A stretch of 64,000 nucleotides of DNA from Parcubacteria group bacterium. GTDB lineage: Bacteria > Patescibacteriota > Minisyncoccia > Moranbacterales > UBA11712. Position numbers and translations under genes: made by a program. The notes below the pieces were generated by a model. It was not told the origin of the DNA, made no database searches, and saw only the letters and a list, made by a program, of their open reading frames with translations. Shown here one piece after another: positions 1-51,056 of the stretch. The stretch spans positions 3,332 through 67,331 of the forward strand of contig JBAZXV010000008.1 of NCBI GenBank assembly GCA_041659685.1. Direction: 5' to 3'. How positions within the stretch are numbered: position 1 is the stretch's first letter; every line of letters begins with the position of its first letter.

Positions 1-3000
1 GATTCCAATGCTGCCGGTGCTATTCGCGAACAAAGCTTCGGTCGATCCGGCGCGGACGCGCAGAGGCGAAAGAGTCGAAGATGCCCCGGTTTGAAGATTC
101 AGAAGAGAGCCAGTGCCATTGGCTCCGTTGTCGGTCGTGAGCGAGAAAAGATCGCTGGTTCCCGTTCCTGTCGCCCAGTTGAAAGCGGAGGAATAGGTTC
201 CCATGTTGAGAGACAAGCTGGTGCCCGGCGCTGTGAGAGCCGACCAGGTGCTGGATCCGGCGCCACCGAGATTCGTCCAGCTTCCCCCGCTGTTTTTGAA
301 TTGCAACGTTCCATTGTTATCAAAGATTCCGTATCCATTTGTCCCGGTCAAAGAACCGAAATTCAAATAGTTGTTCGATCCGCGCAAAATCGCGCTGCCG
401 GTGAGATCCAGCGCCGCCAGCGGAGAAGTTGTGCCTATGCCGACATTTCCGCTTGTATAATATATATTTGAACCGTTCTGCCCCCAGAGAGAGGAAGCGC
501 CGCTGCCGCTACTAGACGAGCCGAGAACGGTTTCGTTGCCAGAACTGTCTTTGAAGGCCAAAGCTGATGCTCCATAGGCTCTCGTCGGCGGAGTGAAATT
601 TGAAGTCCAGCGGGCTGTGCCTTTGGAAACTCGAACTTCATCCATGTAGCCACTGAAGTAGGTTGGGCCGTAAACCACCCGACCAATTTCTACAGGGGCT
701 GCAAAAGTAGACCAGGTGTTGGTAGAAGCCGTGCCGCTTGCGACGCCATTAATATACTGCGTTACAACTCCTCCCGATCTTACTATAGCAATATGTGTCC
801 ATGTGGTCGCTGGAATAGTTATAGTTGAATGAAAACCAATTACGGTGCTGCCTGATATATTCAGATAAGTGTTTAATTGATTCCCAGTATCAATATATAC
901 AGAGAAATAATTACTTGTATCTACCCACTGATCTATAATTCTATCCAACACACCTGCGTTATTCCTATTTACCCACATATCAATAGTGAAATCTCCTGAC
1001 CCGTAATCCCAATCATCGCTATCAGGCACGGAAACATAGTCTCCGGTCCCGTCAAAATAAGCGCTCTTTCCTCCAAATTCCGATTTGGTCGTACTTTGGG
1101 TGGCATCGCCATTTGCCGTCACGGTTTTTGCGCTTGAAGAACTATCCGTGAAAGTTGCACCCATTCCGTCAGCGTGGAGAAGAAGCTTGGTATATGAATC
1201 ATTTCCGGCCAGTGGAGACATGGCATACAACTTCCCAAACCCGCTCGTCGCGCTCGGAGAGCTCGTTTGTTCCGCAAGACTCATCACACCGTTAACGGTC
1301 AATTTCTCATTCGGGCTGGTTGTTCCGATTCCAATGCTGCCGGTGCTATTCGCGAACAAAGCCTCGGTCGATCCGGCGCGGACTCGGAGAGGCGAAACGG
1401 TTGAGGACGCTCCGGTTTGGAGATTCAAGAGCGAGCCGGTGCCGTTCGCCGAGTTGTCAGTCGTCAAAGAGAAAAGATCGCTGGTTCCCGTTCCTGTCGC
1501 CCAGTTGAAAGCGGTGGAATAAGTTCCCATATTGAGAGACAAAGCGGTGCTCGGCGCGGTGAGGGCCGACCAAGTGCTCGATCCGGCGCCGCCGAAATTC
1601 GTCCAGGCTCCCCCGCTGTTTTTGAATTGGAGGGTTCCGGCGTTGTCGCGGAAACCGTATCCGTTTGTTCCGTCAGCCGTTCCCCAGTTGAAATAGCCGT
1701 TGGCAGCCAAGCCGATGTTGCCGATGACATCAAGCGCGTGATTGGGAGTGGCATTGCCGATACCCACGCTTCCGCCGGTGTGGTAGATGCTGCCGTCGGG
1801 GTTGGCCGTCCAGACGCCGGTTGCCGTGGAAGAAGTGGCATAGTATTTCCAGTCGGAGTTCGAAGCGAGATCCGGACCGTTGTTATAGATCGGAGCGCGG
1901 TAGATTACGCTGTTATAGGACGCGTTGCCTCCGCCGAAAAGATAGACATATCCGCCGACAACAGCTGTTTGAGAAGCATAAAGATTGGCTGGCAAAGTTG
2001 CGCCGGAACTGACCCAGCTGGTCGGGTTCGAGACTGGAGCGCGGTATATTGTGCTTATTGCACCGCTTGTATACCCCCCCAACAAATATACATAGTCTCC
2101 GATAACGGCAACCTGCGACATTCCGATACTTGCCGGCAGAGTGGCACCTGTGTTGACCCAACTGGTCGGGTTTGAAACCGGAGCGCGGTAGATGACGTTG
2201 GTAACTGGTCCGTTGAGAGTTCCGCCGAAAAGATAGACATAACCTCCAATAACCGCGACATGAGAATATGCCAGATTTCCCGGTATGGTTGACCCGGTGT
2301 TTTCCCAGGAAGTCGGGTTCGAAACTGGAGCGCGATAGATGACGTTGGTATAGGCACTGCCGTTGTGTCCGCCGAAAAGATAGACATAGTCGCCGATGAC
2401 GGCTACTTGGGAAGCTTGGAGATTGCCCGGCAAGGTTGATCCGGTGTTTGACCAAGAAGTGGGGTCGGAAACTGGAGCGCGATAGATTACGTTGGTAATT
2501 GCGCTAGCGCTAACTCCGCCAAAGAGATATACATAATCTCCGATGACCGCCACTTGGGATTGCTGGAGATTCCCCGGCAAAGTTGCTCCTGTATTCGTCC
2601 AGGAAGTCGGATTGGAAACAGGCGCTCGGTAGATAACATTCGTTGCCGCGCTTGCATTGGTTCCACCGAAAAGATAGACATAGTCTCCGATGACAGCAGT
2701 TTGGGAATGTGCCAACACACCCGGCAGAGTCGCGCCTGTATCCACCCATTCGTCTTCTTTCATCCCCGTGCTGCCGGTTCCAGAGCTCGAACCCATCGCC
2801 ATCCAAGCGCCGTTTGAGTTTCGAAATTCCATCGTCCCGTTGTTGTCGCGGATGCCGTAGCCGGAATTTCCGGCGGTCGAGCCGAAATTGAGATAGTTAT
2901 TGAGTCCGCTCAAAATGCCGCTGCCGGCAAGGTCAAGTTTCGCGAGAGGCGCGGTCGTGCCGATCCCCACGTTTCCGGAGTTATAATAGAGTGAAGAGCC

Positions 3001-6000
3001 GTTGGTTCCCCATTGAGATGAAGCGCCGCTGCTTCCTCCAGTCAAAGCGGTAATGTTTCCGTCAGAATCCTTGTAGGCAAGATGCTTTCCAACGTCAAAA
3101 GCTTGGTTTGGCGGAGTGAAATTGGATGTCCAGCGGGCAATGCCTTTGGAGACTCGAATTTCGTCTTTATAATTTGCCACATCGTCCTGATACTCGGAAC
3201 CTCTTGAATAAAATCCTCCGATTCTTATGTAATTATTAACAGTAAAACTAAAGGAAGTGGTCGACGTAGATGTTTTCACTCCGTTTATAAACCCAAAAAC
3301 ACTGCTGCCTGACCGCACGTAGGCAACGTGAACCCATTGATTCAAGGGCACGGTGCCTTCGGTTATGGTGGTCCAGGCATAGCCGCTGCCGGTTTCCGCT
3401 CGAAAATCCAGCTGATTGTTCGTGATGCCGCACGTTATTTCTTGTCTTTGGTCCAGGCCCCAGCCTTTATCACCTATACTAAATACTGTTATCCTATGAC
3501 CTACCGTCGAGGCAGTCAGATAAACCCAGGCATCCACAGTGAAATCTCCCGCACCAAAAGCAAAATCGCTGCTGTCCGCCAAGCTGAGGTAATCCCCTGT
3601 CCCGTCGAAATAGGAGCTCTTTCCGCCAAACTCTGATTGAGTCGAACTCTGAGTTGCGTTGCCGTAGGCCGTCACCGTTTTTGGAGTAGCTTCGCTGTCC
3701 GTGAAAGTAGCGCCTGTGCCGTCGGCGTGGAGCAGTAATTTTGTGTAGGAATCATTGCCGCCAATTCCACCCACTGCGTACAACTTGCCAAATCCGCTCG
3801 TGGCATCAGGCGCATTCATGGATTCCGCAATGGAAATATTTCCGTTCACGGTCAATTTCTCGTTCGGGCTGATTGTCCCCACTCCGACATTCCCGGTGTT
3901 GCCCGCGAACAAAGCTTCGGTCGAGCCGGCCCGGATTCGGAGAGGCGAAAGGGTTGAAGAGGCTCCGGTTTGGAGATTAAGAAGCGAGCCGGTGCCGTTG
4001 GCGGAGTTGTCGGTGGTGAGCGAGAAGAGATCGCTCGATCCCGTTCCGGTTGTCCAGTTGAAAGCGGAAGAATAGGTTCCCATATTGAGAGACAAGTTGG
4101 TGGAAGGCGCGGTGAGAGCCGACCAAGAAGAGGAACCGGCGCCGGCGCCAAGATTCGTCCAGATTCCCCCGCTGTTTTTGAATTGCAATGTTCCGGCGTT
4201 ATCTCGGAAACCATATCCGTTCGTTCCGTCAGCCGTTCCCCAGTTGAAATAGCCGTTGGCGGAGAGGCCGAAGTTGCCGGTGATGTCGAGAGCATGATTG
4301 GGAGCATTGTTTCCGATGCCGACGTTCCCGCCGGTGTAGTAGATACTGCCGTTCGTGTTGGCCGTCCAGATTCCTGCCGCAGAAGAAGTTGCATATTTCC
4401 AAGAGGCGTTCGAGGCTAGGGACGGACCGCCATTGAGAATAGGAGTACGGTAAATAGTGCCGATTCCGACACTGCCATTATTTCCTCCAAAAAGATAAGC
4501 GTAATTTCCGACAGCCGCGACTTGAGAAAGATACAAATTGCTCGGCAGAGTTTTGCCTGTATTGGTCCACGTCGTCGGGCTAGAAACAGAGGCGCTATAC
4601 ATGACATTAGTATAGACACTGCTACCAAGATATCCACCCAGTTGATATATTTTATCGCCGACAATCATAGCTTGTGAATAACTGAGAGTGCCCGGTATAC
4701 TTGATCCCGTGCTGGCCCAAGAAGTCGGGTTGGAAACAGGGGCCCGATAGATAGTGGCGGTTCCATAGCCCCCGAACAAATAGACATAATCCCCAATAAC
4801 TGCAAGCTGAGACCAGGTCAGGTTCGTCGGCAAAGTCGAACCCGTGTTTGCCCAAGAAGTCGGATTGGAAAGCGGAGCGCGGTAAATAACATTGGTATTG
4901 CCGCCACCGTTATATCCCCCAAATAAATATATGTAATCTCCGATAATTGCGACTTGCGAACCATCCAAGTTTCCTGGCAAAGTCGAACCCGTGTTTGCCC
5001 AAGAAGTCGGGTTGGAAAGCGGAGCGCGATAGATAACATTGGTTGTTGTGCCAGCAATATTTCCCCCGAACAGATAGACATAATCTCCGATAATTGCGAC
5101 TTGCGAATATCCCAAATTACCCGGCAAAGTCGAACCCGTGTTTGTCCAGGACGTCGGACTGGAAACAGGAGCCCGATAGATGATATTTGAATTATATCCC
5201 CCGAACAGATAGACATAATCGCCAATGACCGCGGTTTGAGAGCCATATAGAGCGGCTGGCAAAGTCGAACCTGAATCCGCCCATCCGTCTTCTTGCATGG
5301 ACATACTAGTCGTTCCGCCGCCGCCTGATCCTATTGCTACCCAAGCGCCGCTTTGGTTTTTGTATTCCATTGTTCCGTTGTTGTCGCGCAGACCGTATCC
5401 GGAAGTTCCGGCGGTCGAGCCGAAGTTCAAATAGTTGTTGAGCCCGCTCAAGATTCCACTGCCGGCAAGGTCAAGTTTCGCGAGCGGTGCGGTCGTGCCA
5501 ATTCCCACGTTGCCGGAGGTATAGTAGGCGCTGGTGCCGTTCTGGCCCCAGAGGGAAGATGCGCCGCTGCCGGATGCTCCGGCCAAAACTGTTTCCGTGC
5601 CTAAACTGTCTTTATACGCCAGAACACCGCCGCTGCCATAAGCTCTCGTTGGAGGAGTGAAAGCGGAGGTCCAGCGGGCGATGCCTTTGGAAATTCGATA
5701 TTCATCCATATAGCCATTGAAGGAAGTGCCGCCGTTCCAATCAGCTCCGATATATAAACCACTCGCCGACATATCAAATGTGGCGCTTGTCGCCCAGTCG
5801 GAACCTTTTTGAGCTCCGTCACGGAAAACTTTCACGACTCCGTTTGTCCTGACGACCGCCGCGTGATACCAAACACCGGTGGAAAGAGAATCGGAAAAAG
5901 CATGATTAGCAGCTCCATCATATAAATTCCAGCCATTGGAAGCATCATACATTATTCTTAGGGAGGGATTCGGCAGGCTGCCGGCTGAGGTAAGGAAAAA

Positions 6001-28024: not shown

Positions 28025-28705
28025 TTATTTGAATTTTTCTATCTCCGTCTGGGCTTTCTCGAGGTCTTGAGGATTTCCAATCGCCATCCAGCGCGTCGTT
28101 TTCATTACTTTCACCGGATAGTCCTTCGCCATCACTGCCAAGGTTTGAGGGAGTCCGAATTCTTTTCCCGTTATCCTAACCAACTCATAATCAAAAAATT
28201 TATCATTAAGCATGAAAGCGTTCGTGCTGACAAAGGCATCCCCTTCCATCTTTGGTTTTTCGACTATTTCAACAAGCTTCCCCTCCTCATCCGTCTTAAG
28301 GACTCCGAACCTTGACGGATCATCGACTTCCTGAGCGAGAACCGCCAAGCTTTCTTTTATCATATCTTTCAAATCTTTTTTGTAGTAAAGGTCATCTCCC
28401 ATAACAACCAAGAATTTTCCTTTCGCCAGATTTTTACACGCGTGAAGCGCCCCGCCCGTTCCATTCAGTTCTTTTTGGACGACATATTTTATTTTCCGGC
28501 CCTTCCAAACGCCCCCGAAATAATTTTTTATTTGGTCGGAAAGATAATTGACAACGATTATGACTTCGTCGATCTCGTCCGGCAAAAAGGAAAGTGTCCA
28601 TTCCAAAATTGGCTTTCCTTTGATGAAAAGCATTGGCTTTGGCGTTTTATATGTGAGCGGTCGCATTCTTGTCCCTTCTCCCGCGGCCATGATGACTGCT
28701 TGCAT
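28025..28705 (-). CDS. sugar-phosphate nucleotidyltransferase (RmlA/GlmU-N-like)
   Basis: MQAVIMAAGEGTRMRPLTYKTPKPML. The called ORF extends to 28750, but its first 15 codons are encoded by the intergenic cagatt-repeat palindrome, so the start is probably at 28705. Confidence 0.7.
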   Translation of the reverse strand: MQAVIMAAGEGTRMRPLTYKTPKPMLFIKGKPILEWTLSFLPDEIDEVIIVVNYLSDQIKNYFGGVWKGRKIKYVVQKELNGTGGALHACKNLAKGKFLVVMGDDLYYKKDLKDMIKESLAVLAQEVDDPSRFGVLKTDEEGKLVEIVEKPKMEGDAFVSTNAFMLNDKFFDYELVRITGKEFGLPQTLAVMAKDYPVKVMKTTRWMAIGNPQDLEKAQTEIEKFK

Positions 28706-28791
28706 ATGGAATACAGATTGTGAACAGATTTGACACAGATTAATTTGCAATGATCTGTATTATCCGCGTGTAATCTGTCAAAAATTTGCGT

Positions 28792-31695
28792 TTAATGTGT
28801 GATTACGAAGTTTATCAATCTGTCTTTCACAAAAATAATTTTCCGTATATCTTTTCCTTCCGTGTATTTTATAATCTTTTGGCTCTCGAGCGCCAGCTTC
28901 TTCGCTTCCTCTTCCTTGACACCGGACGGGACCTTAATCTGGTCGCGAACCTTACCGTTCACTTGAATAATCAGCATTATTTCTTCGTCTTGGACGAGTT
29001 TCGGGTCATACTCCGGCCATTTTTCAAAAAATATAGATTCTTTGCGGCCGAGTTTTTCTTGCCATATCTCCTCCGCCATATGCGGTGCGAATGGGCTTAG
29101 TATAGTATTTAGCAGTTGGTAGCTGATAATCGGTAACTCTTTTTCTTTCTCCATTTCATTCACTAAAATCATCATCGCCGAAATCGCCGTATTGAACCGC
29201 AGATTATCGATATCTTCGGTAACTTTTTTTATAGTCTTATGCAATAATGAATTTATTTTCGTGTTTTGTGTTTTGGGGCCTGGGTTTTGTTTGGTATTTT
29301 GTGTGTTCGTGCTTTGTGTTTTTTCTTCCAATCGCCAGACCCGCTCCAAAAATCTTCTCAATCCTATAATACTGGATGTGTTCCATCTTTTCATATCCTC
29401 AAGCGGACCCATGAACATTTCATAAAGCCGAAGGACATCCGCGCCGTACTCTTTCACTATTTCATCCGGATTAATGACGTTTCCCAAAGACTTCGACATT
29501 TTCCGCCCGTCCTCGGCAATAACAATCCCTTGATGGCGAAGTTTTTTGAACGGCTCGTCGAAATCGATGCGGCCGTGCCTGTGAAGCGCTTTCGTGAAAA
29601 ATCGGGAATACAGCAAATGAAGAACCGTGTGTTCGGCGCCACCGATATAGAGGTCAACCGGCAGCCATTTTTCTATTTTTTCTTTTCCGGCAAATTCTTT
29701 TTCGTTCTTCGGATCAGAAAATCTGAAAAAATACCAGGATGAGCAGACGAATGTGTCCATCGTGTCGAGCTCCCGTTTTGCGGCGGCGCCGCATTTCGGA
29801 CAAACCGTATTCACAAAATCAGAATTTGTTCCAAGCGGCGATGTTCCTTTCGGGCGATAATCCTTCACCTCCGGAAGAAGAACGGGAAGATCTTTCTCGG
29901 AAACCGGCTGCCATCCGCACTTTTCGCAATAAATCATCGGTATCGGGCTTCCCCAATATCTTTGCCGCGAAATGAGCCAGTCGCGGATCTTATAGGTTGT
30001 TTTTCTTCCGCCAAAATTATTTTTTTCAAGCCAAACGGCCATTTCTTCGCGGGCTTTTTCCGATGAAAGACCGGAATATTTTCCCGAATTCACCAAAAAT
30101 CCCTTTTCGGTTAGCACTTTTCCTTCGAGATAAGAAAGATCGATCTTGTCCTTCTCTTCGCTCCTGTTTTTTATGAAATAATTTTTCAAATTTATGAGAA
30201 ATTTCCGGCTCAAAACAAGTGACTGATAATCGCCAAATGTTTTGATCTCTTCTTCGAAATCACAATCTTTTAATCCGTATTCCCAGGCGCAAGGGCCGAT
30301 ATCCACTTCGATTCCGTTTGAATTTTTGAAAATAAAGTTAGTCAATTTTTCGGTTAACTTTTTCTCTTTTATCTTTTCGAAGCCAAGCTTCTCGAGAACG
30401 GCTATCATCTTTTCCTGCGAAGCCGGATCTCTGGCGATCAGATCCAGATCGTCGTGCTCGCGATATACGATTCCCGCATAAAATGCATTGGCCAGGCCGC
30501 CAAGAAGCCAGAACTTTACATTTTCTTTTTGCGCTTCATTATATATTTCCTTCAGGGCCTCCAGAACCTTTATTGTCTTTTCATAAGATTCGAAATCAAG
30601 AGTGATGGATTGGCTTATCGGCAGATTGTATTTTTTTGCAAACTCAAAATCCCGCTCGTCGTGAGCCGGAACAGCCATTACTGCGCCGGTGCCGTAGGTT
30701 GAAAGAACATAATCGGCAACGAATATGGGAACTTCCTTGTCCGTGAAGGGATTAATTACCCTAAGGCCTTTGATTTCGACTCCCGTTTTTTCTTTCTGGA
30801 GTTCCGTTCGCTCGAGATCCGTTTTCCTTTTCGCTTCGTTAATATATTTTTCAACTTCCTTGTAATTTTCAATCCCATCTTTTATTTTTTCTATAATCGG
30901 ATGTTCTGGAGAGACAACTGCATAGGTCATGCCATATACAGTATCCAAACGAGTTGTATAGACCCTAATTCCTGATTCGTAATTCGTAATTCGTAATTCA
31001 AATTCCGCGCCGACGGACTTTCCAATCCAATTTTTTTGCGCGATTTTTGTCGATTGCGGCCAGTCAATCTTGTCGAGCCCCTCAATGAGTTCTTCCGCAA
31101 AATCGGTTATCTTGAAAAACCACTGCTCAAGATCTTTCTGGATCACTTCGTTCTTGCAGCGTTCGCAAATTCCGCCTTCCGCCTGCTCGTTGGCGAGAAC
31201 CGTCTGGCAGGATCCGCACCAGTTTACCTTCGCCTTTTTGCGGTAAGCAAGGCCGTTTTTATATAAAAACAAAAAGAACCATTGGGTCCATTTGTAATAT
31301 CCGGGATTCGAAGTGTCGATTTCCCGCTTCCAGTCATAAGACAGCCCAAGGCTCTTGATTTGTCCCGTAAAATTTTTGATATTTTGATGCGTACTCTTGT
31401 CGGGATGAACTCCGGTCTTGATGGCATAGTTTTCCGCCGGAAGGCCGAACGCGTCCCACCCCATCGGATGCAGAACATTTTTTCCTTTCATTCGCTGATA
31501 ACGGGAATATATGTCTGAGGCAGTGTATCCTTCCACGTGCCCGACATGGAGCCCGTCGCCCGAAGGATACGGAAACATATCAAGGCAATAGAATTTTTCC
31601 TTTTCCGACTTCTCGTCCGCCTCAAAAAGTTCCGGATGCTCCGCCCAGTATTTTTGCCACTTTCTCTCAATTTTCTTAGGATTATACTTAGGCAT
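28792..31695 (-). CDS. leuS: leucine--tRNA ligase
   Basis: 967 aa. PYPSGDGLHVGHVEGY (HIGH) and KMSKSLGNVI (KMSKS) motifs. Confidence 0.95.
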   Translation of the reverse strand: MPKYNPKKIERKWQKYWAEHPELFEADEKSEKEKFYCLDMFPYPSGDGLHVGHVEGYTASDIYSRYQRMKGKNVLHPMGWDAFGLPAENYAIKTGVHPDKSTHQNIKNFTGQIKSLGLSYDWKREIDTSNPGYYKWTQWFFLFLYKNGLAYRKKAKVNWCGSCQTVLANEQAEGGICERCKNEVIQKDLEQWFFKITDFAEELIEGLDKIDWPQSTKIAQKNWIGKSVGAEFELRITNYESGIRVYTTRLDTVYGMTYAVVSPEHPIIEKIKDGIENYKEVEKYINEAKRKTDLERTELQKEKTGVEIKGLRVINPFTDKEVPIFVADYVLSTYGTGAVMAVPAHDERDFEFAKKYNLPISQSITLDFESYEKTIKVLEALKEIYNEAQKENVKFWLLGGLANAFYAGIVYREHDDLDLIARDPASQEKMIAVLEKLGFEKIKEKKLTEKLTNFIFKNSNGIEVDIGPCAWEYGLKDCDFEEEIKTFGDYQSLVLSRKFLINLKNYFIKNRSEEKDKIDLSYLEGKVLTEKGFLVNSGKYSGLSSEKAREEMAVWLEKNNFGGRKTTYKIRDWLISRQRYWGSPIPMIYCEKCGWQPVSEKDLPVLLPEVKDYRPKGTSPLGTNSDFVNTVCPKCGAAAKRELDTMDTFVCSSWYFFRFSDPKNEKEFAGKEKIEKWLPVDLYIGGAEHTVLHLLYSRFFTKALHRHGRIDFDEPFKKLRHQGIVIAEDGRKMSKSLGNVINPDEIVKEYGADVLRLYEMFMGPLEDMKRWNTSSIIGLRRFLERVWRLEEKTQSTNTQNTKQNPGPKTQNTKINSLLHKTIKKVTEDIDNLRFNTAISAMMILVNEMEKEKELPIISYQLLNTILSPFAPHMAEEIWQEKLGRKESIFFEKWPEYDPKLVQDEEIMLIIQVNGKVRDQIKVPSGVKEEEAKKLALESQKIIKYTEGKDIRKIIFVKDRLINFVITH

Positions 31696-35848: not shown

Positions 35849-36322
35849 TTATTCAATTTTCATAAAATCAATACTCTCACTGTCGTCTATAAGCTTCGCG
35901 TAAACGAGAATTATTTCTTTTTCAGGATAATACTTTAAAATTTTTTCTTTCGCTTTTCGGAGTTCGCTTTCGTGGAATTTCTGCTCGGCTTCAAGGTCGC
36001 CCTTGAACTCTGCGCTTCCGCCGTAAGCTCCGCAGTCGGCATGATTCACGATAACGATTTTTTTGACGTGATGCAGATCGCACGGAACGCCAATGCACAT
36101 CATCGGGACATCGACTTCGTTCTGACAGTCGTTTATTGCTTTCGCGGATCCGGGCATTTTAGGAAAATCATACGATTTAATCCCGAGATCCTCATCGATA
36201 AACTTCATCGTCTCTTTCCAAAATCGGAAGTCTATGCAGGCAAGGACAACCGCGTCGCAACTGTGAATGTTTTTATAGTTGAATGGGGTTTTCATAAAAT
36301 ATCTTTTTTGTTCGAAGCGCAA
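35849..36322 (-). CDS. beta-carbonic-anhydrase-like protein (divergent)
   Basis: ACIDFRF (compare CxDxR) and NHADCGAYGG (compare HxxCG), the two zinc-ligand motifs of beta-carbonic anhydrases, with Phe replacing the usual Ser. Confidence 0.4.
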   Translation of the reverse strand: MRFEQKRYFMKTPFNYKNIHSCDAVVLACIDFRFWKETMKFIDEDLGIKSYDFPKMPGSAKAINDCQNEVDVPMMCIGVPCDLHHVKKIVIVNHADCGAYGGSAEFKGDLEAEQKFHESELRKAKEKILKYYPEKEIILVYAKLIDDSESIDFMKIE

Positions 36323-36425
36323 AGCTCAAATCTCAAAACCACAGAGAAAAACTTAAAACTTTTTATAATTTTTAATTTTAAGTTGTGGTTTTGAACTTTG
36401 CGTTTTGAATTTTGAGCTTAATTAC
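36310..36425. repeat. about 110-bp palindromic intergenic element, copy 1
   Basis: About 90% identical to 38800-38925 (aaaaccacag.g.aaaacttaaaacttttt ... gttgtggttttgaactttgcgttttga.ttttgag). Confidence 0.7.
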
Positions 36426-36853
36426 TCGATTTTCATTCCTCTTCTCGTCAGATGTTTTTTTGCCACTCGGATTCGCGCCAGATTTTTTTCAAGAATCGCC
36501 GCCGCGGTCGCGTATTCTGTTTCATCCATTCTTATCTTTTCCTCTTTTATTTTTTCCGCCCGCGCTTTCGCTTCTTCCGCCCGCTTCACATCGATCTCCT
36601 CCGCCCTTTCGGCTGTGTCGGCGAGAACCGTAATCTCATTTTTTTGCACTTCGATCATGCCGCCTGAGGCCGCTATCGCCACTTCTTCGTTTTCTCTTTT
36701 AGCGACAATTTCTCCGGCGCGAAGAACTGAAATCAGAGGAATATGATTCGGAAGCACGGTAATCTCCCCTTCTGATGTCGGAAGAGTAACTTGATCAACT
36801 TCAGACTCATAAACAGTACGTTCGGGAGTTACGATCTTAAATTTTATTTTCAT
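36422..36853 (-). CDS. atpC: ATP synthase F1 epsilon subunit
   Basis: IVTPERTVYESEVDQVTLPTSEGEITVLPNHIPLISVLRAGEI. Confidence 0.85.
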   Translation of the reverse strand: MKIKFKIVTPERTVYESEVDQVTLPTSEGEITVLPNHIPLISVLRAGEIVAKRENEEVAIAASGGMIEVQKNEITVLADTAERAEEIDVKRAEEAKARAEKIKEEKIRMDETEYATAAAILEKNLARIRVAKKHLTRRGMKIE

Positions 36854-36894
36854 GTGACAGATTTTACGCGGATTATAAACCGATTAGACACGGA

Positions 36895-37335
36895 TTACAC
36901 GGATTGTTTTTGCTTTATCTTTGCAAAAAATGGCTTGTTATCGTTTGTACAAATTATTCTTCTGAAATACAACGACGGCAATCCGAAATTAAAAACATAG
37001 CCTATCTCATATTCCGACGCTTTTAAATATTCTGACAACTGGATTTCATGCTTTCTGAAGACTTGCGGCACGGCTTTCAACTCCAGAACAATTTTATTTT
37101 CTATAACCAAATCAGGCTCATAATATCCAATTTCGTTTCCGGTATCTCTTGAACGGATAGCTATTTTGGGCTTTGAAAGAAATTTCAACTTGTCTAAATT
37201 CAATCTTTCTTCCAGAGCTTTGTGGTAAATTCGTTCATTATGAACAGATTTATAATCCCTGTGAATTGCCATGCAAATCCCCACGAGCCTGTAGCTCAAT
37301 TCCTTATGCAAAAATTTTTCCTCCTTCATATCCAT
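36895..37335 (-). CDS. GxxExxY-family protein (PD-(D/E)XK-like), inserted between atpD and atpC
   Basis: LSYRLVGICMAIHRDYKSVHNERIYHKALEERL...GYYEPDLVIENKIVLELKAV...EYEIGYVFNFG matches the family pattern (G..E..Y; DL.VE..I..E.KAV; G.L.NF). Confidence 0.8.
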   Translation of the reverse strand: MDMKEEKFLHKELSYRLVGICMAIHRDYKSVHNERIYHKALEERLNLDKLKFLSKPKIAIRSRDTGNEIGYYEPDLVIENKIVLELKAVPQVFRKHEIQLSEYLKASEYEIGYVFNFGLPSLYFRRIICTNDNKPFFAKIKQKQSV

Positions 37336-37401
37336 TGATTTGCGCTAAACTAATCCGCGTAATCCGCAAAAATCTGCAAAAAATCCGTGTTTAATCTATG
37401 C

Positions 37402-38796
<1,395 letters not shown>

Positions 38797-38799
38797 TTA

Positions 38800-38925
38800 G
38801 CTCAAAGCGTAAAGCTTAAATTTCAAAACCACAGCGCAAAACTTAAAACTTTTTGAAATAATTTTGAGCTTTTAGTTGTGGTTTTGAACTTTGCGTTTTG
38901 AGTTTTGAGTTTAACTTAAATTATT
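38800..38925. repeat. about 110-bp palindromic intergenic element, copy 2
   Basis: See 36310-36425. The two copies bracket atpD-GxxExxY-atpC in direct orientation. Confidence 0.7.
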
Positions 38926-38955
38926 AAAAAATTCAATATAATTGGTAAAATAAAA

Positions 38956-39918
38956 CTAATTTTCCAAGGCAGCACGACCGGCGCTGATTTCCGCAATTTC
39001 CTGCGTGATGCCGGCTTGGCGAATTTGGTTATATATAAGCGTTAGGTTGTCCGCCATATCCCTGGCTGCATCCGTGGCGTTTCGCATCGCCACCATCCGC
39101 GCCGATTCCTTTGAAGCGTTTGACTCCAAAATGGCATGATATATCTGCATCTCAACAAGCCGCGGCAAAATTTCCGTGAGCACTGTTTTTGCATCCGGTT
39201 CAACCTTATATTCCATCGGCGGTTCATTGAGGCCGTATTCTTTCGCCAAAACATCCATATCAGCCAGCTGTTTTTCGATATCCACTTTCGATATCGGAAG
39301 AAGCTGGCGAAACTTCGGCTGTTGGACAACAGCTGAAATATAATCCATATAAGCAATCACGACTTTGTCATACTTTTTGGCCCGATACTCGTCCATAATG
39401 AGCCTGGCAAGCCCTCGCACATCTTCAGTTTGCGGAAGATAAGTCAGCTCATCAAATGTGGCAATGATGTTCTTGCCGATTTTCCGAATAAAGTTGGCGC
39501 CTTTTTTTCCGACAGTCACAAAATCAATCTCGATCTTATCATCCGGAATGCTTGATTCAATTCTTTTTGATCCAGTTCTGTTCACCTTGAGCTGGCCCGG
39601 ATTATTCACCTGCTCAGCGACTCTTCTGAGAAGCTGGGAGTTAAATCCGCCGCAAAGTCCCCGGTTCGAAGTAATGACAACCATAAGAATCTTTTTCACT
39701 TCGCGCGCTTCAAGGAGATCGATTGGATAATTTTCAAAAGCGCGGGCCATATTCGTCAGCACGCCCCAGGCGCTGTGGGCATACGGGCGGATTGCAAGAA
39801 CACTGGCCACTGTCCGCCGCATCTTCGAAGCCGCCACCATTTCCATGGCGCGTGTGATTTTTTTCGTATTGTTCACCGATTTTATTCGGCGGCGTATTTC
39901 TCGAGATCCTTGAGCCAT
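38956..39918 (-). CDS. atpG: ATP synthase F1 gamma subunit
   Basis: 320 aa. RRRIKSVNNTKKITRAMEMVAASKMR N-terminus. Confidence 0.9.
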   Translation of the reverse strand: MAQGSREIRRRIKSVNNTKKITRAMEMVAASKMRRTVASVLAIRPYAHSAWGVLTNMARAFENYPIDLLEAREVKKILMVVITSNRGLCGGFNSQLLRRVAEQVNNPGQLKVNRTGSKRIESSIPDDKIEIDFVTVGKKGANFIRKIGKNIIATFDELTYLPQTEDVRGLARLIMDEYRAKKYDKVVIAYMDYISAVVQQPKFRQLLPISKVDIEKQLADMDVLAKEYGLNEPPMEYKVEPDAKTVLTEILPRLVEMQIYHAILESNASKESARMVAMRNATDAARDMADNLTLIYNQIRQAGITQEIAEISAGRAALEN

Positions 39919-39964: not shown

Positions 39965-41482
39965 TTAGGCATTCCCATACACTTCCTTATATTCCTCAAT
40001 CGCCTTTTTAAGCGATTTTTCAACGTCTTCCGTCAATTCTTTCTTCTCCTTTACGAGCGCCAGCACATCACTTTTCATTTCTTTCATGTATTTATGAAAT
40101 TCTTCTTCCCATTTTTGAACATTCGCTACCGGAGTATCATCCAAATATCCGTTCGTAAGGGCATAGAGAATCGCCACTTGATTTTCAACCGGCATCGGAA
40201 CATATTGGTCCTGCTTTAAGACTTCAACTGTCCGCTGTCCTCTCTCTATTTGCTTTCGGGTTGATTCGTCGAGGTCAGATCCGAACTGGGCAAAGGCTTC
40301 GAGTTCGCGGAACTGAGCAAGATCGAGACGCAACTTTCCGGCTACCTTTTTCATCGCCTTGATCTGCGCGGCCGACCCCACGCGGGAAACAGAGAGACCG
40401 ACATTGAGAGCCGGGCGGATACCCTTATAAAACAAGTCTGATTCAAGATAAATCTGCCCGTCAGTGATGGATATTACGTTCGTTGGAATGTAGGCCGAAA
40501 CATCGCCCGCCTGCGTTTCAATGATCGGAAGGGCGGTAATGGATCCTCCGCCGAAATCTTTTGAGAGCTTGGCGCTTCGTTCAAGAAGCCTTGAATGAAG
40601 ATAGAAAATATCTCCCGGATAAGCTTCGCGTCCCGGCGGACGTTTGAGAAGAAGCGAAACCTGCCGATAAGCCCAGGCGTGTTTTGAAAGATCGTCATAA
40701 ATGACCAGCACGTCTTTTCCCTGGTCCATGAAATATTCTCCAATCGCGCAACCGGAATAAGGCGCGATATAAGAGAGTGATGCCGGATCCGACGCTCCCG
40801 CAACCACCACAATCGTATGCTCCATGGCTTCATTTTTTTCAAGCTCGGAAACAATGCGCGCCACTTTCGATTCCTTCTGTCCGATTGCGACGTATATGCA
40901 GATTACATTCTCGCCCTTTTGGTTAATTATCGCATCAATCGCAACTGCCGTTTTTCCCGTTTGACGGTCGCCGATAATAAGCTCTCGCTGGCCCCGTCCG
41001 ATCGGAATTGCCGAATCAATGGCTTTTATTCCGGTTTGGAGCGGCTGTTTTACGGATTCACGAGCGATTACACCCGGCGCGATTTTTTCAATCGGGTAAA
41101 ATTTTTCGGTTTTTATCTCTCCTTTTCCGTCAATGGCCTGGCCGAGCGGATCCACCACTCTTCCAATCATTTTCTCTCCGGCCGGCACGGACAAAATTTT
41201 TCCGGTTGAACGCACGGTGTCGCCTTCCTTTATTTTTTCATATTCTCCAAGAATCATGGCGCCGACTTGGTCTTCTTCAAGATTAAGAGCCACGCCCAGG
41301 ATCGACCCTTGAGGAGAAGGAAATTCCAGCATTTCACTCGCCATGACGTCCGAAAGGCCTGAAATGCGGGCAATTCCGTCGCCGACTTCGATCACCTGGC
41401 CGACTTTTTCAGATTTGGCTTCCGCCTTGAAGCCGGAGATTTGTTTTTTAAGAGTCTCTACTATTAAGTCTTTTTGGTTCAT
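39965..41482 (-). CDS. atpA: ATP synthase F1 alpha subunit
   Basis: [10 protein letters not shown]-loop, 505 aa. Confidence 0.97.
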
Positions 41483-41634
41483 AATGATTTGTAAAAATTA
41501 ATTTTCAATTACCAATTTCCAATTATCAATCAATTCTCAATTCATCAATGATCAATTTTCAAACGGCATAATAGTTATAATTGAAAATTGAGTCATTGAA
41601 AATTCATTGTAAATTGATCATTGATTATTGAAAA

Positions 41635-42036
41635 TTATTTCGCCAAAATTTTCTTCAACTCCCCCAGCCGCCCCGCGATGCTCCCGTCAATCACTTCATC
41701 CCCGACTTTCATTATGATTCCGCCCTTAATGTTCACGTCGATTATGTTTCTTAAAACCACTTCCTTTGCTGAATATTTATTTTTCAAAAAAATTTTTGCC
41801 TTATGCTCCAGGGACTCGTCAGCTTTCTCACGGGTTATAATTTCGGCCTCGATAATCCCGTTTTTTTTGTTATATATATCATTAAACTGATTGATTATTT
41901 TTTCCGCCAATTTTATCTTTCTTGATTTGTTCAGATAACGCGCGAAATCAGCCACGGATTTTTCAATTTCCGTTTTTGGCTTTCCTTCCGTCATCGCATA
42001 CAGCGTTTCGGCATATTGTTTTGAAGTGATGCGCAT
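41635..42036 (-). CDS. atpH: ATP synthase delta (OSCP) subunit, short form
   Basis: 133 aa in the delta position of the operon. C-terminus VIDGSIAGRLGELKKIL. Confidence 0.7.
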   Translation of the reverse strand: MRITSKQYAETLYAMTEGKPKTEIEKSVADFARYLNKSRKIKLAEKIINQFNDIYNKKNGIIEAEIITREKADESLEHKAKIFLKNKYSAKEVVLRNIIDVNIKGGIIMKVGDEVIDGSIAGRLGELKKILAK

Positions 42037-42045
42037 CCTAAAATA

Positions 42046-42534
42046 TTAACTGATTATTTTTTCCGCCAGTTCCTTATCCGCCTTCTTGTTTATTTTTTCC
42101 CCGAGCACTTTTTCCGTCGCCAAGACAACCAGGGAGCCGATTTCCGACTTTATCTCCGCAATCGTTTTATCTTTTTCCCTGCCAATTTGATCCTTTGCCT
42201 CGGCGATTATTTTTTCCGCCTGGACTTTGGCTTCGGCGGCCAGCTCAGACTTGCTTTTTTCCGCTTGTTCATGAGCCTTTTCGACAATAATTTTTGCCTC
42301 AATCCGCGCTTTTTTGAGAATTTCTCCCTCTTTTTTCCCCGCCTCTTCCAGTTTCTTCCGGGATTCCTCGGCATCTCTCATGCCTTTCTCTATCTTCCTG
42401 GTGCGGTTTTCAAGCATTTTAAGAATCGGACCATAAGCAAACTTATACAGCACAAACAAGAGAACCAAAAAATTTATGATTTGGGCAATCAATAATTTCC
42501 AGTCTATTCCCAGTTTTGTTAATAGCTCTGACAT
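42046..42534 (-). CDS. atpF: ATP synthase F0 b subunit
   Basis: N-terminal TM followed by a long charged coiled-coil (EA.K/AEAK-rich). Confidence 0.8.
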   Translation of the reverse strand: MSELLTKLGIDWKLLIAQIINFLVLLFVLYKFAYGPILKMLENRTRKIEKGMRDAEESRKKLEEAGKKEGEILKKARIEAKIIVEKAHEQAEKSKSELAAEAKVQAEKIIAEAKDQIGREKDKTIAEIKSEIGSLVVLATEKVLGEKINKKADKELAEKIIS

Positions 42535-42641
42535 AGTATCACAAATTTTACGCTGATTATTTACAGATTAGCACAGATTACACAGATTTAATCTGCGTAA
42601 TCTGCGTTCAATCTGCCAAAAATATGTGTTCAATCTGCGCG

Positions 42642-43007
<366 letters not shown>

Positions 43008-43049: not shown

Positions 43050-43832
43050 TTAATGACTTTCTGTTGCCGCCATTTTAAGAAACACGAGAGTCAGCATTGA
43101 AAATACCAGAGCCTGCACGAATCCGACGAACAATTCCAAAAACAAGAACGGGAGCGGGACGAAATACGGCACAAGGAACAACATCACCATAAGGAGAATT
43201 TCTCCGGCAAAAATATTTCCAAAAAGCCGGAAGGAAAAGGAAATAATTTTAGCAACTTCGGAAACAAGCTCCAGGGCTCCAACGAAAGTTCCGACAAAAT
43301 ACGGCTTGTGCAGGGGGCTCACAAAGAATTTCCCGGCATATTTGGCAAATCCGATGGCCGCTATCCCGATAATCTGCGACCCGACAACACTCACGATTGC
43401 AAGTGCAAGGGTCATATTAAGATCAGCTGATCCGCTTCGGATAAAGGGAACGAGTTCGTTTTCTCCGTGAATCTTTTTAAAAATTCCAATTGTTCCGAGA
43501 CCCGGCAAAACTTCCACCCAATTTGAAAGTATGACAAAAATGAATATGGTCGCGACGAGCGGAAAAAATATTTTTGACTGCTTGCGATCCTGCGTAACGC
43601 TGTCAATCATATCCAGAAGAGCCTCCAATACGGCTTCCGCTGCATTTTGAAATCCCCTTGGCACCAAGCGAATGCGCGATTTGAGCAAAAACGACGCCAC
43701 AATAACCAGCAAGCTGATGCAAAGAGTCACCAAAATAGTGTTCGTCACTGGAAATGATCCTATATGGAAAATGGGTTCTGCAGCAATTGAAATATTCATA
43801 TCTAAACAGGCATCGGCTGCCCTTTTAGCCAA
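43050..43832 (-). CDS. atpB: ATP synthase F0 a subunit
   Basis: RLFGNIFAGEILL contains the conserved Arg. Confidence 0.9.
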   Translation of the reverse strand: MAKRAADACLDMNISIAAEPIFHIGSFPVTNTILVTLCISLLVIVASFLLKSRIRLVPRGFQNAAEAVLEALLDMIDSVTQDRKQSKIFFPLVATIFIFVILSNWVEVLPGLGTIGIFKKIHGENELVPFIRSGSADLNMTLALAIVSVVGSQIIGIAAIGFAKYAGKFFVSPLHKPYFVGTFVGALELVSEVAKIISFSFRLFGNIFAGEILLMVMLFLVPYFVPLPFLFLELFVGFVQALVFSMLTLVFLKMAATESH

Positions 43833-46554: not shown

Positions 46555-46625
46555 AATACACTAAGTTTAACGAGTATATACACTAAAATTAACAAATATA
46601 ACTATCTCAGTTCGTGTCTATATTC

Positions 46626-47043
46626 GTTAAATTTCGTGTCTCTCTAGGAATGGCTTCCTATCATTTGTATATATAATTCTTTTGATATATAGTTTTGAAC
46701 TTTTGAAATTTACAAAATAACCTAACTCATACTTGCTTTTTTTAAGATAGCTGTATATCTGATCAATAAAATTCTTAGGAATTATATCAACGGCCTTTAT
46801 TTCGACAATAACTTTTCCGTCTATTAAAAAATCTACTCTATAATTTCCGACTGAATTTCCAGTTTTTGGCGAATATATTTTAATATTCCTCTCCTTTTCA
46901 AAGAGAATGCTCTTTGCCTTCAGTTATTCTATGACTGCATTTTGATAAACCATCTCTTTATGTCCCGGACCAAAATTTCGCCTGACTTCCATGAAAATTC
47001 CCTGTAGTTTATAACTTAATTCTTTATACAATAAATCTGCCAT
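46626..47043 (-). pseudogene. GxxExxY-family gene with an in-frame TAA at 46925-46927
   Basis: The minus strand reads MADLLYKELSYKLQGIFMEVRRNFGPGHKEMVYQNAVIE*LKAKSILFEKERNIKIYSPKTGNSVGNYRVDFLIDGKVIVEIKAV...LGYFVNF...YTND, the same frame on both sides of the TAA. Confidence 0.6.
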
Positions 47044-47125
47044 CTTAAGCCTTCGTTTCCTTAGTGTTTATATTCGTTTCTTATCTGTGTTTTCCTTCTC
47101 CGTTGGATTCGTGTGTATTTTCGTT

Positions 47126-50913: not shown

Positions 50914-50917
50914 CTAA

Positions 50918-50957
50918 GGTTCAACCTTAGCAGCTGCTAAGGTTGAACCTTAGAAAC
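50918..50957. repeat. 40-bp perfect palindrome CTAAGGTTCAACCTTAG-CAGCTG-CTAAGGTTGAACCTTAG
   Basis: An exact inverted repeat. Each 17-mer arm is itself hairpin-forming. Lies between the M16 start and the pepA stop. Confidence 0.8.
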
Positions 50958-51056
50958 TGCAATGATTTTAATACGTATTTAAATACTCACCGCGGTAAGT
51001 ATTTTTTTGGTTCCGGCATATAAGCAATACCAATAATTGCAAATATTGCTCAAAAA

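Follow-up and report, generated by a model that had tools for sequence, protein, structure and literature searches.

A putative nuclease gene in the ATP synthase operon

We have analyzed a stretch of 64 kb (the window, from contig JBAZXV010000008.1) of a Parcubacteria group bacterium, in which a small gene of the GxxExxY family, bordered by inverted repeat arms, lies inside the operon of the F-type ATP synthase. The window belongs to a low-G+C (45%) genome of the Patescibacteria, whose nearest relatives among public genomes are metagenome-assembled genomes of Candidatus Moranbacteria. The operon is found on the minus strand in the order atpB-E-F-H-A-G-D, GxxExxY open reading frame (ORF), atpC, and each of the atp genes was confirmed by Pfam. 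The gene of the F1 beta subunit, atpD (37402-38790, minus strand; ATP-synt_ab, E 1.6e-73), ends in a stop codon at 37402-37404, 1 nt before the first unit of the upstream arm. The gene of the F1 epsilon subunit, atpC (36422-36853, minus strand; ATP-synt_DE_N, E 2.3e-28), is intact and its start codon adjoins the downstream arm. The spacer between them has 548 nt, made up of a co-directional ORF of 146 aa (36895-37335, minus strand, from an ATG at 37335; Pfam and NCBIfam models) and two arms of about 50 nt each. The whole cassette is thus placed exactly between the stop codon of atpD and the start codon of atpC, in the direction of the operon. Both the gene order and the Pfam and TIGR matches bear out the initial annotation, which had recognized a GxxExxY gene at this position.

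The predicted protein

The 146-aa ORF can be assigned to the GxxExxY family by its full-length matches to PF13366 (PDDEXK_3; E 1.4e-24, 87.1 bits against a cut-off of 22) and TIGR04256 (GxxExxY; E 2.5e-24, 85.9 bits against a cut-off of 35). No transposase domain of the insertion sequence or RAYT type was detected, Pfam and NCBIfam giving only these two models. In the motif that names the family, E34 and Y37 are invariant, and the G position is occupied here by V31; it is variable in this subfamily and G is kept in distant members (P0024-P0029). Seven residues are invariant in 25 homologues (E34, Y37, D75, E85, K87, Q99 and Y103), and among them E34, D75, E85-x-K87 and Q99-xxx-Y103 make up the E / D / ExK / QxxxY set of the nucleases of RecB/Cas4 type. 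A search of the PDB by sequence gave no match. The AlphaFold (AF2) model of the protein (pLDDT 87.5), compared with the PDB by Foldseek, had as best fold matches Cas4 SSO0001 (4ic1), RecE (3h4r), alkaline exonuclease, ACE1, MGME1 and the nuclease domains of AddAB/AdnAB, with weak scores (E 3e-3, TM 0.54). PADLOC also gave a weak match to a Cas4 model, which was marginal (E 0.0094). Motifs and model point to a predicted PD-(D/E)XK nuclease of the RecB/Cas4-like branch with an intact active site.

Between copies of the cassette pN was 0.14-0.21 and pS 0.70-0.76, the latter being saturated. Values of pN so far below pS indicate that the gene is maintained by purifying selection, and the saturation of synonymous sites indicates that all the divergences are old. 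Within the N-terminus of the annotated ORF, a strong AAGGAGG (37326-37320) is located 8 nt before an in-frame TTG (37311-37309), and a comparable GGAGG-N7-11-TTG arrangement is present in two homologous loci (L001 and L003; individual loci are given here by their L numbers). The TTG at 37311 may be the true start, giving a protein of 138 aa, and the arrangement suggests an independent translation initiation of the GxxExxY gene.

The inverted arms

Each arm consists of four to five degenerate units of 9-11 nt; on the mRNA strand, those of the upstream arm read ACRCRRATT and those of the downstream arm AATYYGYGT. The upstream arm (37400-37351, minus strand) is composed of CATAGATTA (37400-37392), ACACGGATT (37390-37382), TTGCAGATT (37379-37371), TTGCGGATT (37369-37361) and ACGCGGATT(A) (37360-37351). 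The downstream arm (36905-36854, minus strand) starts with two copies of AATCCGTGT (36905-36897 and 36896-36888), followed by CTAATCGGT, TTATAATCCGCGT and AAAATCTGTCAC, and its last base directly precedes the ATG of atpC. The stop codon of the ORF (TAA, 36897-36895) falls inside the second downstream unit, and the final unit pair overlaps its last four codons plus the stop codon. The initial annotation had described these arms as inverted repeats of heptamers. The repeats are indeed where it placed them, but the units have 9-11 nt with a core of 6-7 nt and are not strict heptamers. Exact matches to ACRCGGATT number five in the window and all belong to the two flanks (36866, 36888 and 36897 on the plus strand, 37352 and 37382 on the minus strand). 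The bare heptamer CGGATTA has no enrichment over the window (15 found, 11.4 expected), and 4 of the 15 are at the flanks of the cassette.

By thermodynamic prediction, the flanks pair as an imperfect duplex of 43 bp with -47.5 kcal/mol, compared with -17.8 +/- 4.0 for shuffled arms, and this stem is retained when the full stretch of 581 nt is folded, in both the minimum-energy and the centroid prediction. Over seven sequences, 92.6% of the 32 stem pairs were paired, against at most 47% in shifted registers, so that the register of the stem is clearly correct. The Rfam scan of 36200-39000 (E <= 1) gave only sub-threshold matches to miRNA-like hairpins, and no intron or known RNA family; a scan of the cassette flanks for promoters and terminators found no notable signal.

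The same design was found in every orthologue that we examined at the DNA level, with arrays of (A)ACRCRRATT upstream and AATYYGYGT downstream, and the arms could be aligned across loci. About 25 nt of the downstream arm (..TTATAAATTTGTGTAAAAT) were nearly identical between hosts with AtpC proteins only 43-55% identical.

Filled and empty junctions in the relatives

Starting from AtpC as the query, we retrieved 80 genome loci and measured the gap between atpD and atpC in each of them, a comparison of spacing that the initial annotation had proposed. Eight of the closest relatives (L005-L012; AtpD 87-92% and AtpC 79-81% identical) had no GxxExxY gene, their gaps being of 12-182 nt. In one of these (L012) the stop and start codons overlap as TAATG, and the other empty junctions hold unrelated hairpins. 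A filled and an empty locus can be close, as are L003 and L005, with 89% AtpC identity. The initial annotation had stated that the gene would be a resident member of the operon if all relatives carried it here with no inverted repeats; in fact eight of the closest relatives lack it, and those examined that carry it all have inverted arms.

Orthologues (63-83% identical) were located at exactly the same junction in ten lineages (the window, L001, L003, the P0015 contig, L085, L086, L088, L089, L092 and L125), and in several of the hosts AtpC has no more than 42-56% identity with that of the window. The identity of the cassette protein was 62-76% irrespective of that of the host AtpC, which ranged from 42 to 80% (Mantel r = -0.02). 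This incongruence is an argument from distance matrices and not from topology, because the neighbor-joining tree of the cassettes is unresolved. The left boundary varies: in L085, L086 and L089 the arm replaces the last codons of AtpD (..GKITDLTQINTN*), and in the Moranbacteria it begins after the stop codon. Judged by this distribution, the GxxExxY gene is probably an insertion and not a fixed member of the operon.

Related copies elsewhere

Related copies, 52-64% identical, were present at other sites, and in L090, L095 and L096 they lie between genes of clusters resembling type IV secretion systems (T4SS-like clusters) with arms of the same type. Gene and arms were also found at the tsf|rseP junction. 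Some copies are disrupted, by an internal deletion in L096 and by a frameshift in L093, in a similar T4SS-like cluster. A truncated GxxExxY gene of 92 aa (P0023, 64% identical), known from the gene level alone, is at the atpF|atpH junction of a contig from JGI 3300075153, the sample that also holds the atpD|atpC copy P0015. Judged by their company in these contexts, the arms belong to the gene and travel with it into unrelated surroundings such as the T4SS-like clusters and tsf|rseP. As a separate observation, the T4SS-like cluster of L093 has the frameshifted GxxExxY gene and a PF05635-like gene of a four-helix bundle interleaved (2962-3424 and 3791-4186), so that two families of the intervening sequence (IVS) type share a neighborhood there.

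The search for further GxxExxY copies and their flanks, also proposed at the outset, gave a second one within the window (46627-47043, minus strand; 41% identical, tblastn E 2.7e-29, hmmsearch 4.5e-32). It is co-directional with its neighbors, an rsmI-like methylase gene and metG, and it is interrupted by an in-frame TAA at 46924-46926 (codon 40). It has arms of its own, with ACGAAT/ACACTAAG units at 47044-47125 and 46555-46640, and the predicted duplex had -24.1 kcal/mol against -14.7 +/- 3.4 for shuffled sequences.

Arms were found without a gene as well. The atpE|atpF junction contains a solo hairpin (42535-42641, minus strand; -40.9 kcal/mol, z -6.4) that is collinear with the cassette arms joined head to head, with 40/51 identical positions for the upstream arm and 42/52 for the downstream arm (78-81%). 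A second solo hairpin, built from units of the same type (ACAGATT / AATCTGT), lies between leuS and an NTP-transferase gene (28705-28795, minus strand; -22.4 kcal/mol, z -3.5).

The remaining genes of the operon, all on the minus strand, are atpB (43050-43832), atpE (42642-42926), atpF (42046-42534), atpH (41635-42036), atpA (39965-41482) and atpG (38956-39918). The hairpins at the atp junctions of the window had z values from -4 to -6.7. Among them is a palindromic element of about 120 nt with two copies, 106/120 (88%) identical, one at atpG|atpD (38795-38918) and the other downstream of atpC (36304-36424). These copies bracket atpD, the cassette and atpC, and they are of a hairpin family different from the cassette arms. 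The atpA|atpH junction (41483-41634) is occupied by a gene-less hairpin of about 150 nt (z -4.7 for the mRNA strand), in which CAATTNC / AATTGAA heptamers form arrays inverted to each other. Another palindrome of the window (50914-50960, ctaaggttcaaccttag...ctaaggttgaaccttag) is nearly identical to an element in the empty atpD|atpC junction of L007 (458-527). Within this clade, small palindromic elements appear to move from junction to junction. The atpD|atpC junction of L017 (3691-4001) is filled by yet another hairpin family, about 310 nt of repeated G+C-rich palindromic units (ccccctctaactccccctacaagg.. / ..aggggaggttaggtgggg).

Two further kinds of repeats were noted in the window. Inside leuS (28792-31695, minus strand) there are tandem arrays of heptamers, TAATTCG repeated 4.9 times at 30966-30999, encoding ..ELRITNYE.., and TTTTGTG repeated 9.6 times at 29257-29322, which codes for a QNTK-rich stretch at the C-terminus. 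The coding region seems to have taken up repeat arrays of the kind found between genes. There are also two tandem arrays with a period of 147 nt and 75-80% matches, at 2165-2694 (3.6 copies) and 4765-5181 (2.8 copies), which are probably a repeated protein module of 49 aa.

Other genes at the junction and distant members of the family

The same junction is used by other small genes. Genes of PF05635 (23S_rRNA_IVP) were identified at atpD|atpC in other Patescibacteria (L027, L035 and L058; E 1e-26 to 1e-38), each one with its own inverted arrays of short units, e.g., CGTAAGC / GCTTACG. Genes with a NYN domain (L016 and L036) and cyclophilin genes (L019 and L045) were also found there. When all the ORFs of 84 loci were searched with hidden Markov models, GxxExxY and PF05635 genes appeared only at atpD|atpC, with a single exception in L083, where a PF05635 gene lies about 1.3 kb upstream of atpD.

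Distant GxxExxY genes of other phyla are flanked by related arrays of units. These were seen in L097, L098 and L100-L102, and in the cultured Bernardetia (CACAGAG / CTCTGTG) and Fusobacteria. In the 100-nt flanks of 12 distant members CACNGA/TCNGTG was enriched 5.7-fold (33 in 2.5 kb against 122 in 53 kb), for a motif that was picked after some of the sequences had been seen and whose matches within one array are not independent. In 12 of 12 further loci, the gene was co-directional with both neighbors. The low-G+C, possibly viral homologues (L106-L119) have no arms, and the association with arms is therefore not family-wide. The plasmid examples L120 and L123 have direct instead of inverted flanking repeats, and another example, L121, has none that were obvious.

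Origin of the cassette

Taking all this together, we read the 548-nt spacer as a selfish cassette inserted at a stop-start junction, in which inverted ends of several units each enclose a promoterless nuclease gene. We give this reading a probability of about 60%. The initial annotation had proposed a cassette with inverted-repeat ends that leaves the operon unbroken, and this idea is supported by the empty junctions of the relatives and the arms that accompany the gene. The sequence comparisons suggest an old cassette, sporadically spread, with all the events being ancient.

Several observations weigh against this reading. The pS values are at saturation for all pairs of copies, and no recent transfer or movement can be seen among them. 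For the claim that the cassette had "homed" into the operon we found no direct evidence of mechanism. No recombinase or partner gene accompanies the cassette, and no PD-(D/E)XK protein of 146 aa is known to mobilize DNA alone. No consistent target-site duplication was seen when the junctions of the window, L001 and L003 were read by eye. The neighbor-joining bootstrap tree of the cassettes is star-like, with L003 placed away from the window and L001 at only 59% bootstrap, and a tree of this kind is compatible with an ancient presence followed by many losses. Every other atp junction is filled by unrelated hairpins, so hairpins as such are not specific of the cassette.

The substitutions in the arms are also on this side of the balance. 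Double-changed pairs were weakly above shuffles (6 against 3.9 expected, a value reached by 58 of 500 shuffles), as was the covariation score (0.190 against 0.162; 38 of 500). With so modest an excess of double changes, we have not used covariation as a proof of arm structure. Wobble-type mismatches had no strand bias (30 sense-strand G-U against 37 antisense, p 0.46), and the sense and antisense duplex energies were mixed across loci; on these two grounds we do not propose that the stem is under selection in the mRNA. The lack of strand bias means that the complementarity of the arms is strand-symmetric, which fits terminal inverted repeats as a feature of the DNA, without specific support for selection of the stem at the mRNA level. 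On thermodynamic grounds, the predicted stem will still form in the transcript.

The gene could instead be a resident accessory gene that entered once in an ancestor, has a function for the host (an enzyme that processes nucleic acids and is co-regulated with the ATP synthase would be an example) and was lost repeatedly. The arms would then form an RNA structure that regulates how strongly the gene is expressed compared with atpD and atpC. The identical position in ten lineages, the strong purifying selection with invariant catalytic residues, and the poorly resolved tree with only ancient divergences all agree with such a history. However, eight of the closest relatives have neither gene nor footprint and carry unrelated hairpins in their junctions, and the divergences of cassette and host are uncorrelated. 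Gene and arms are also found together in T4SS-like clusters, a truncated copy is at atpF|atpH, some copies are disrupted (the premature stop at 46627-47043 in the window, the frameshift of L093 and the deletion of L096), and an unrelated family, PF05635, is located at the same junction elsewhere. We regard this explanation as unlikely. Coincidence would be another way out: a small ORF that happens to lie inside a generic palindromic element, such as a mRNA-stabilizing hairpin or one resembling repetitive extragenic palindromes (REPs) or miniature inverted-repeat transposable elements (MITEs), of the type that fills almost every intergenic junction. The arms would then be a feature of the host or of the hairpin element. 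This is what one might think from the long hairpin at every atp junction of the window, from the two atp-region hairpins that are 88% identical copies of another element, and from the other hairpins in the empty junctions of relatives, one of them recurring at 50914-50960 of the window. Yet wherever an orthologue was examined at the DNA level, whatever its context, its flanks carried units of one type in one order. Distant hosts (AtpC 43-55%) have a stretch of about 25 nt of the downstream arm almost unchanged, and related units flank distant family members in other phyla, which makes coincidence similarly improbable.

A role in defense or addiction, with a stand-alone anti-phage or toxin-like nuclease settled in a highly expressed operon, can be proposed from the Cas4/RecB-type nuclease fold and the weak PADLOC match to Cas4. 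We set it aside as very improbable, that match being only marginal: there is neither a partner gene nor the context of a defense island, the neighbors are housekeeping genes at every site, and the inverted arrays of units would be left without a reason.

If the selfish cassette is accepted, its biology might be as follows. Transcription of the gene would come about by read-through of the atp operon, and translation would start at a ribosome-binding site belonging to the gene. In the transcript, the paired arms would loop out the ORF, bringing the stop codon of atpD and the start codon of atpC together, and may offer a site for RNase III, by comparison with the intervening sequences of rRNA. 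The insertion interrupted nothing and introduced no terminator, which is why the operon stays intact, and its tolerance to the cassette would come from this lack of a terminator and from the pairing of the arms. The iterated units would act as binding or cleavage sites of the encoded nuclease, and the cassette could spread when the nuclease triggers its copying, dependent on recombination, into stop-start junctions or into hairpins already present, much as in homing or in REPIN/RAYT. On the analogy of RAYT/REPIN, the solo hairpins would represent either targets that are still empty or derivatives that lack the gene. That this specific mechanism of mobility is the right one seems possible but rather doubtful to us.

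GxxExxY (PF13366) and PF05635 are annotated protein families to which the sources that we searched assign no function, and the related kinds of elements are the IVS elements with an ORF, the homing endonuclease genes and RAYT/REPIN. Nothing in the literature that we searched describes how the cassette is built, its specificity for the junction, the arms without a gene or the site sharing with PF05635 genes. The locus gives the GxxExxY family a concrete anatomy, that of a promoterless nuclease gene between multi-unit inverted ends at the stop-start junction of an essential operon, and illustrates how such an operon may harbor a parasite without an evident cost. The cassette can be compared with empty sites, solo arms and disrupted copies that occur in nature. 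If it were true that the arms are the substrate of the enzyme, the cassette would represent a minimal mobile element of a new type. It would also explain some of the intergenic DNA of Patescibacteria that is rich in hairpins, and a source of small sequence- or structure-specific nucleases would be available.

Comparison with known systems

The initial annotation had referred to GxxExxY genes as known passengers of intervening sequences. We found no paper in support of this, the documented passenger family being PF05635, which occurs inside rRNA intervening sequences including those of the Candidate Phyla Radiation (CPR) bacteria (PMC4990558; PMC11270868). A census of rRNA insertions in the CPR includes PF05635 and no PDDEXK_3 (PMC11270868). 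On our reading, the rRNA IVS with an ORF and the cassette are alike in being selfish inserts of about 0.4-0.5 kb in an essential and highly transcribed unit, sporadic and horizontally acquired, with a small ORF closed off by a long stem formed by the flanks (in the cassette, by thermodynamic prediction). They also meet at one site, since PF05635 genes with inverted arrays occupy atpD|atpC in other Patescibacteria. On the other hand, the IVS is located in a helix of the 23S or 16S rRNA and the cassette between two genes of a protein-coding operon, and the ORF of the cassette codes for a predicted PD-(D/E)XK nuclease and not for a four-helix bundle. In Coxiella burnetii the 23S rRNA IVS carries an S23p / PF05635 ORF that was reported to be decaying (PMC4990558), whereas that of the cassette is under clear purifying selection.

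With RAYT/REPIN (PMC3116915) the cassette shares a gene of nuclease or transposase type flanked by palindromic repeats that recur in intergenic DNA as gene-less hairpin doublets, of which there are two within 64 kb here. RAYTs are HUH/Y1 (IS200-like) transposases, which the cassette protein is not, and REPs are short G+C-rich palindromes; the cassette has a RecB/Cas4-type protein and arrays of A+T-rich units of 9-11 nt. RAYTs are described as single-copy and congruent with the species trees at the species level (PMC3116915), unlike the cassette, which is patchy and, by its distances, apparently incongruent with its hosts. As for insertion sequences and MITEs, inverted arms are present, but there is no transposase domain and no target-site duplication was seen by eye at the three junctions mentioned.

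Free-standing homing endonuclease genes are similar in that divergent hosts carry them at one and the same position, which is intact and empty in close relatives (eight empty and ten filled junctions here), and in having a nuclease ORF under selection. Homing enzymes of the PD-(D/E)XK type do exist, e.g., I-Ssp6803I. The rRNA insertions of the CPR contain LAGLIDADG/GIY-YIG genes (PMC11270868). Different from all these, the cassette has no intron, intein or Rfam intron match, and terminal inverted multi-unit arms are its own feature and not one of homing endonuclease genes. The nucleases of the Cas4/RecB/RecE/lambda-exonuclease group share with the cassette protein the catalytic set E ... D ... 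ExK ... QxxxY and are its best fold matches, although compared with Cas4 the protein is about 60 residues shorter and has no cysteines for the Fe-S cluster. The gene cassettes of integrons are also promoterless ORFs, co-directional with their neighbors, with imperfect palindromes that fold as hairpins. In them attC is on one side only and requires the IntI integrase and the attI platform. The GxxExxY cassette has an arm at each end and lies in ordinary junctions of operons, and no integrase was found among the genes examined next to it.

We also put forward a wider idea, tentatively and at somewhat less than even odds. GxxExxY nucleases with inverted arrays of the CAC-N-GAT type may constitute a class of miniature mobile elements that spans phyla and is so far undescribed. 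These would colonize the stop-start junctions of co-directional housekeeping operons and leave gene-less hairpins behind, their units serving as recognition sites of the nuclease. Such elements would be the PD-(D/E)XK counterpart of RAYT/REPIN and, in protein-coding operons, the counterpart of the rRNA intervening sequences, sharing landing sites with the PF05635 cassettes.

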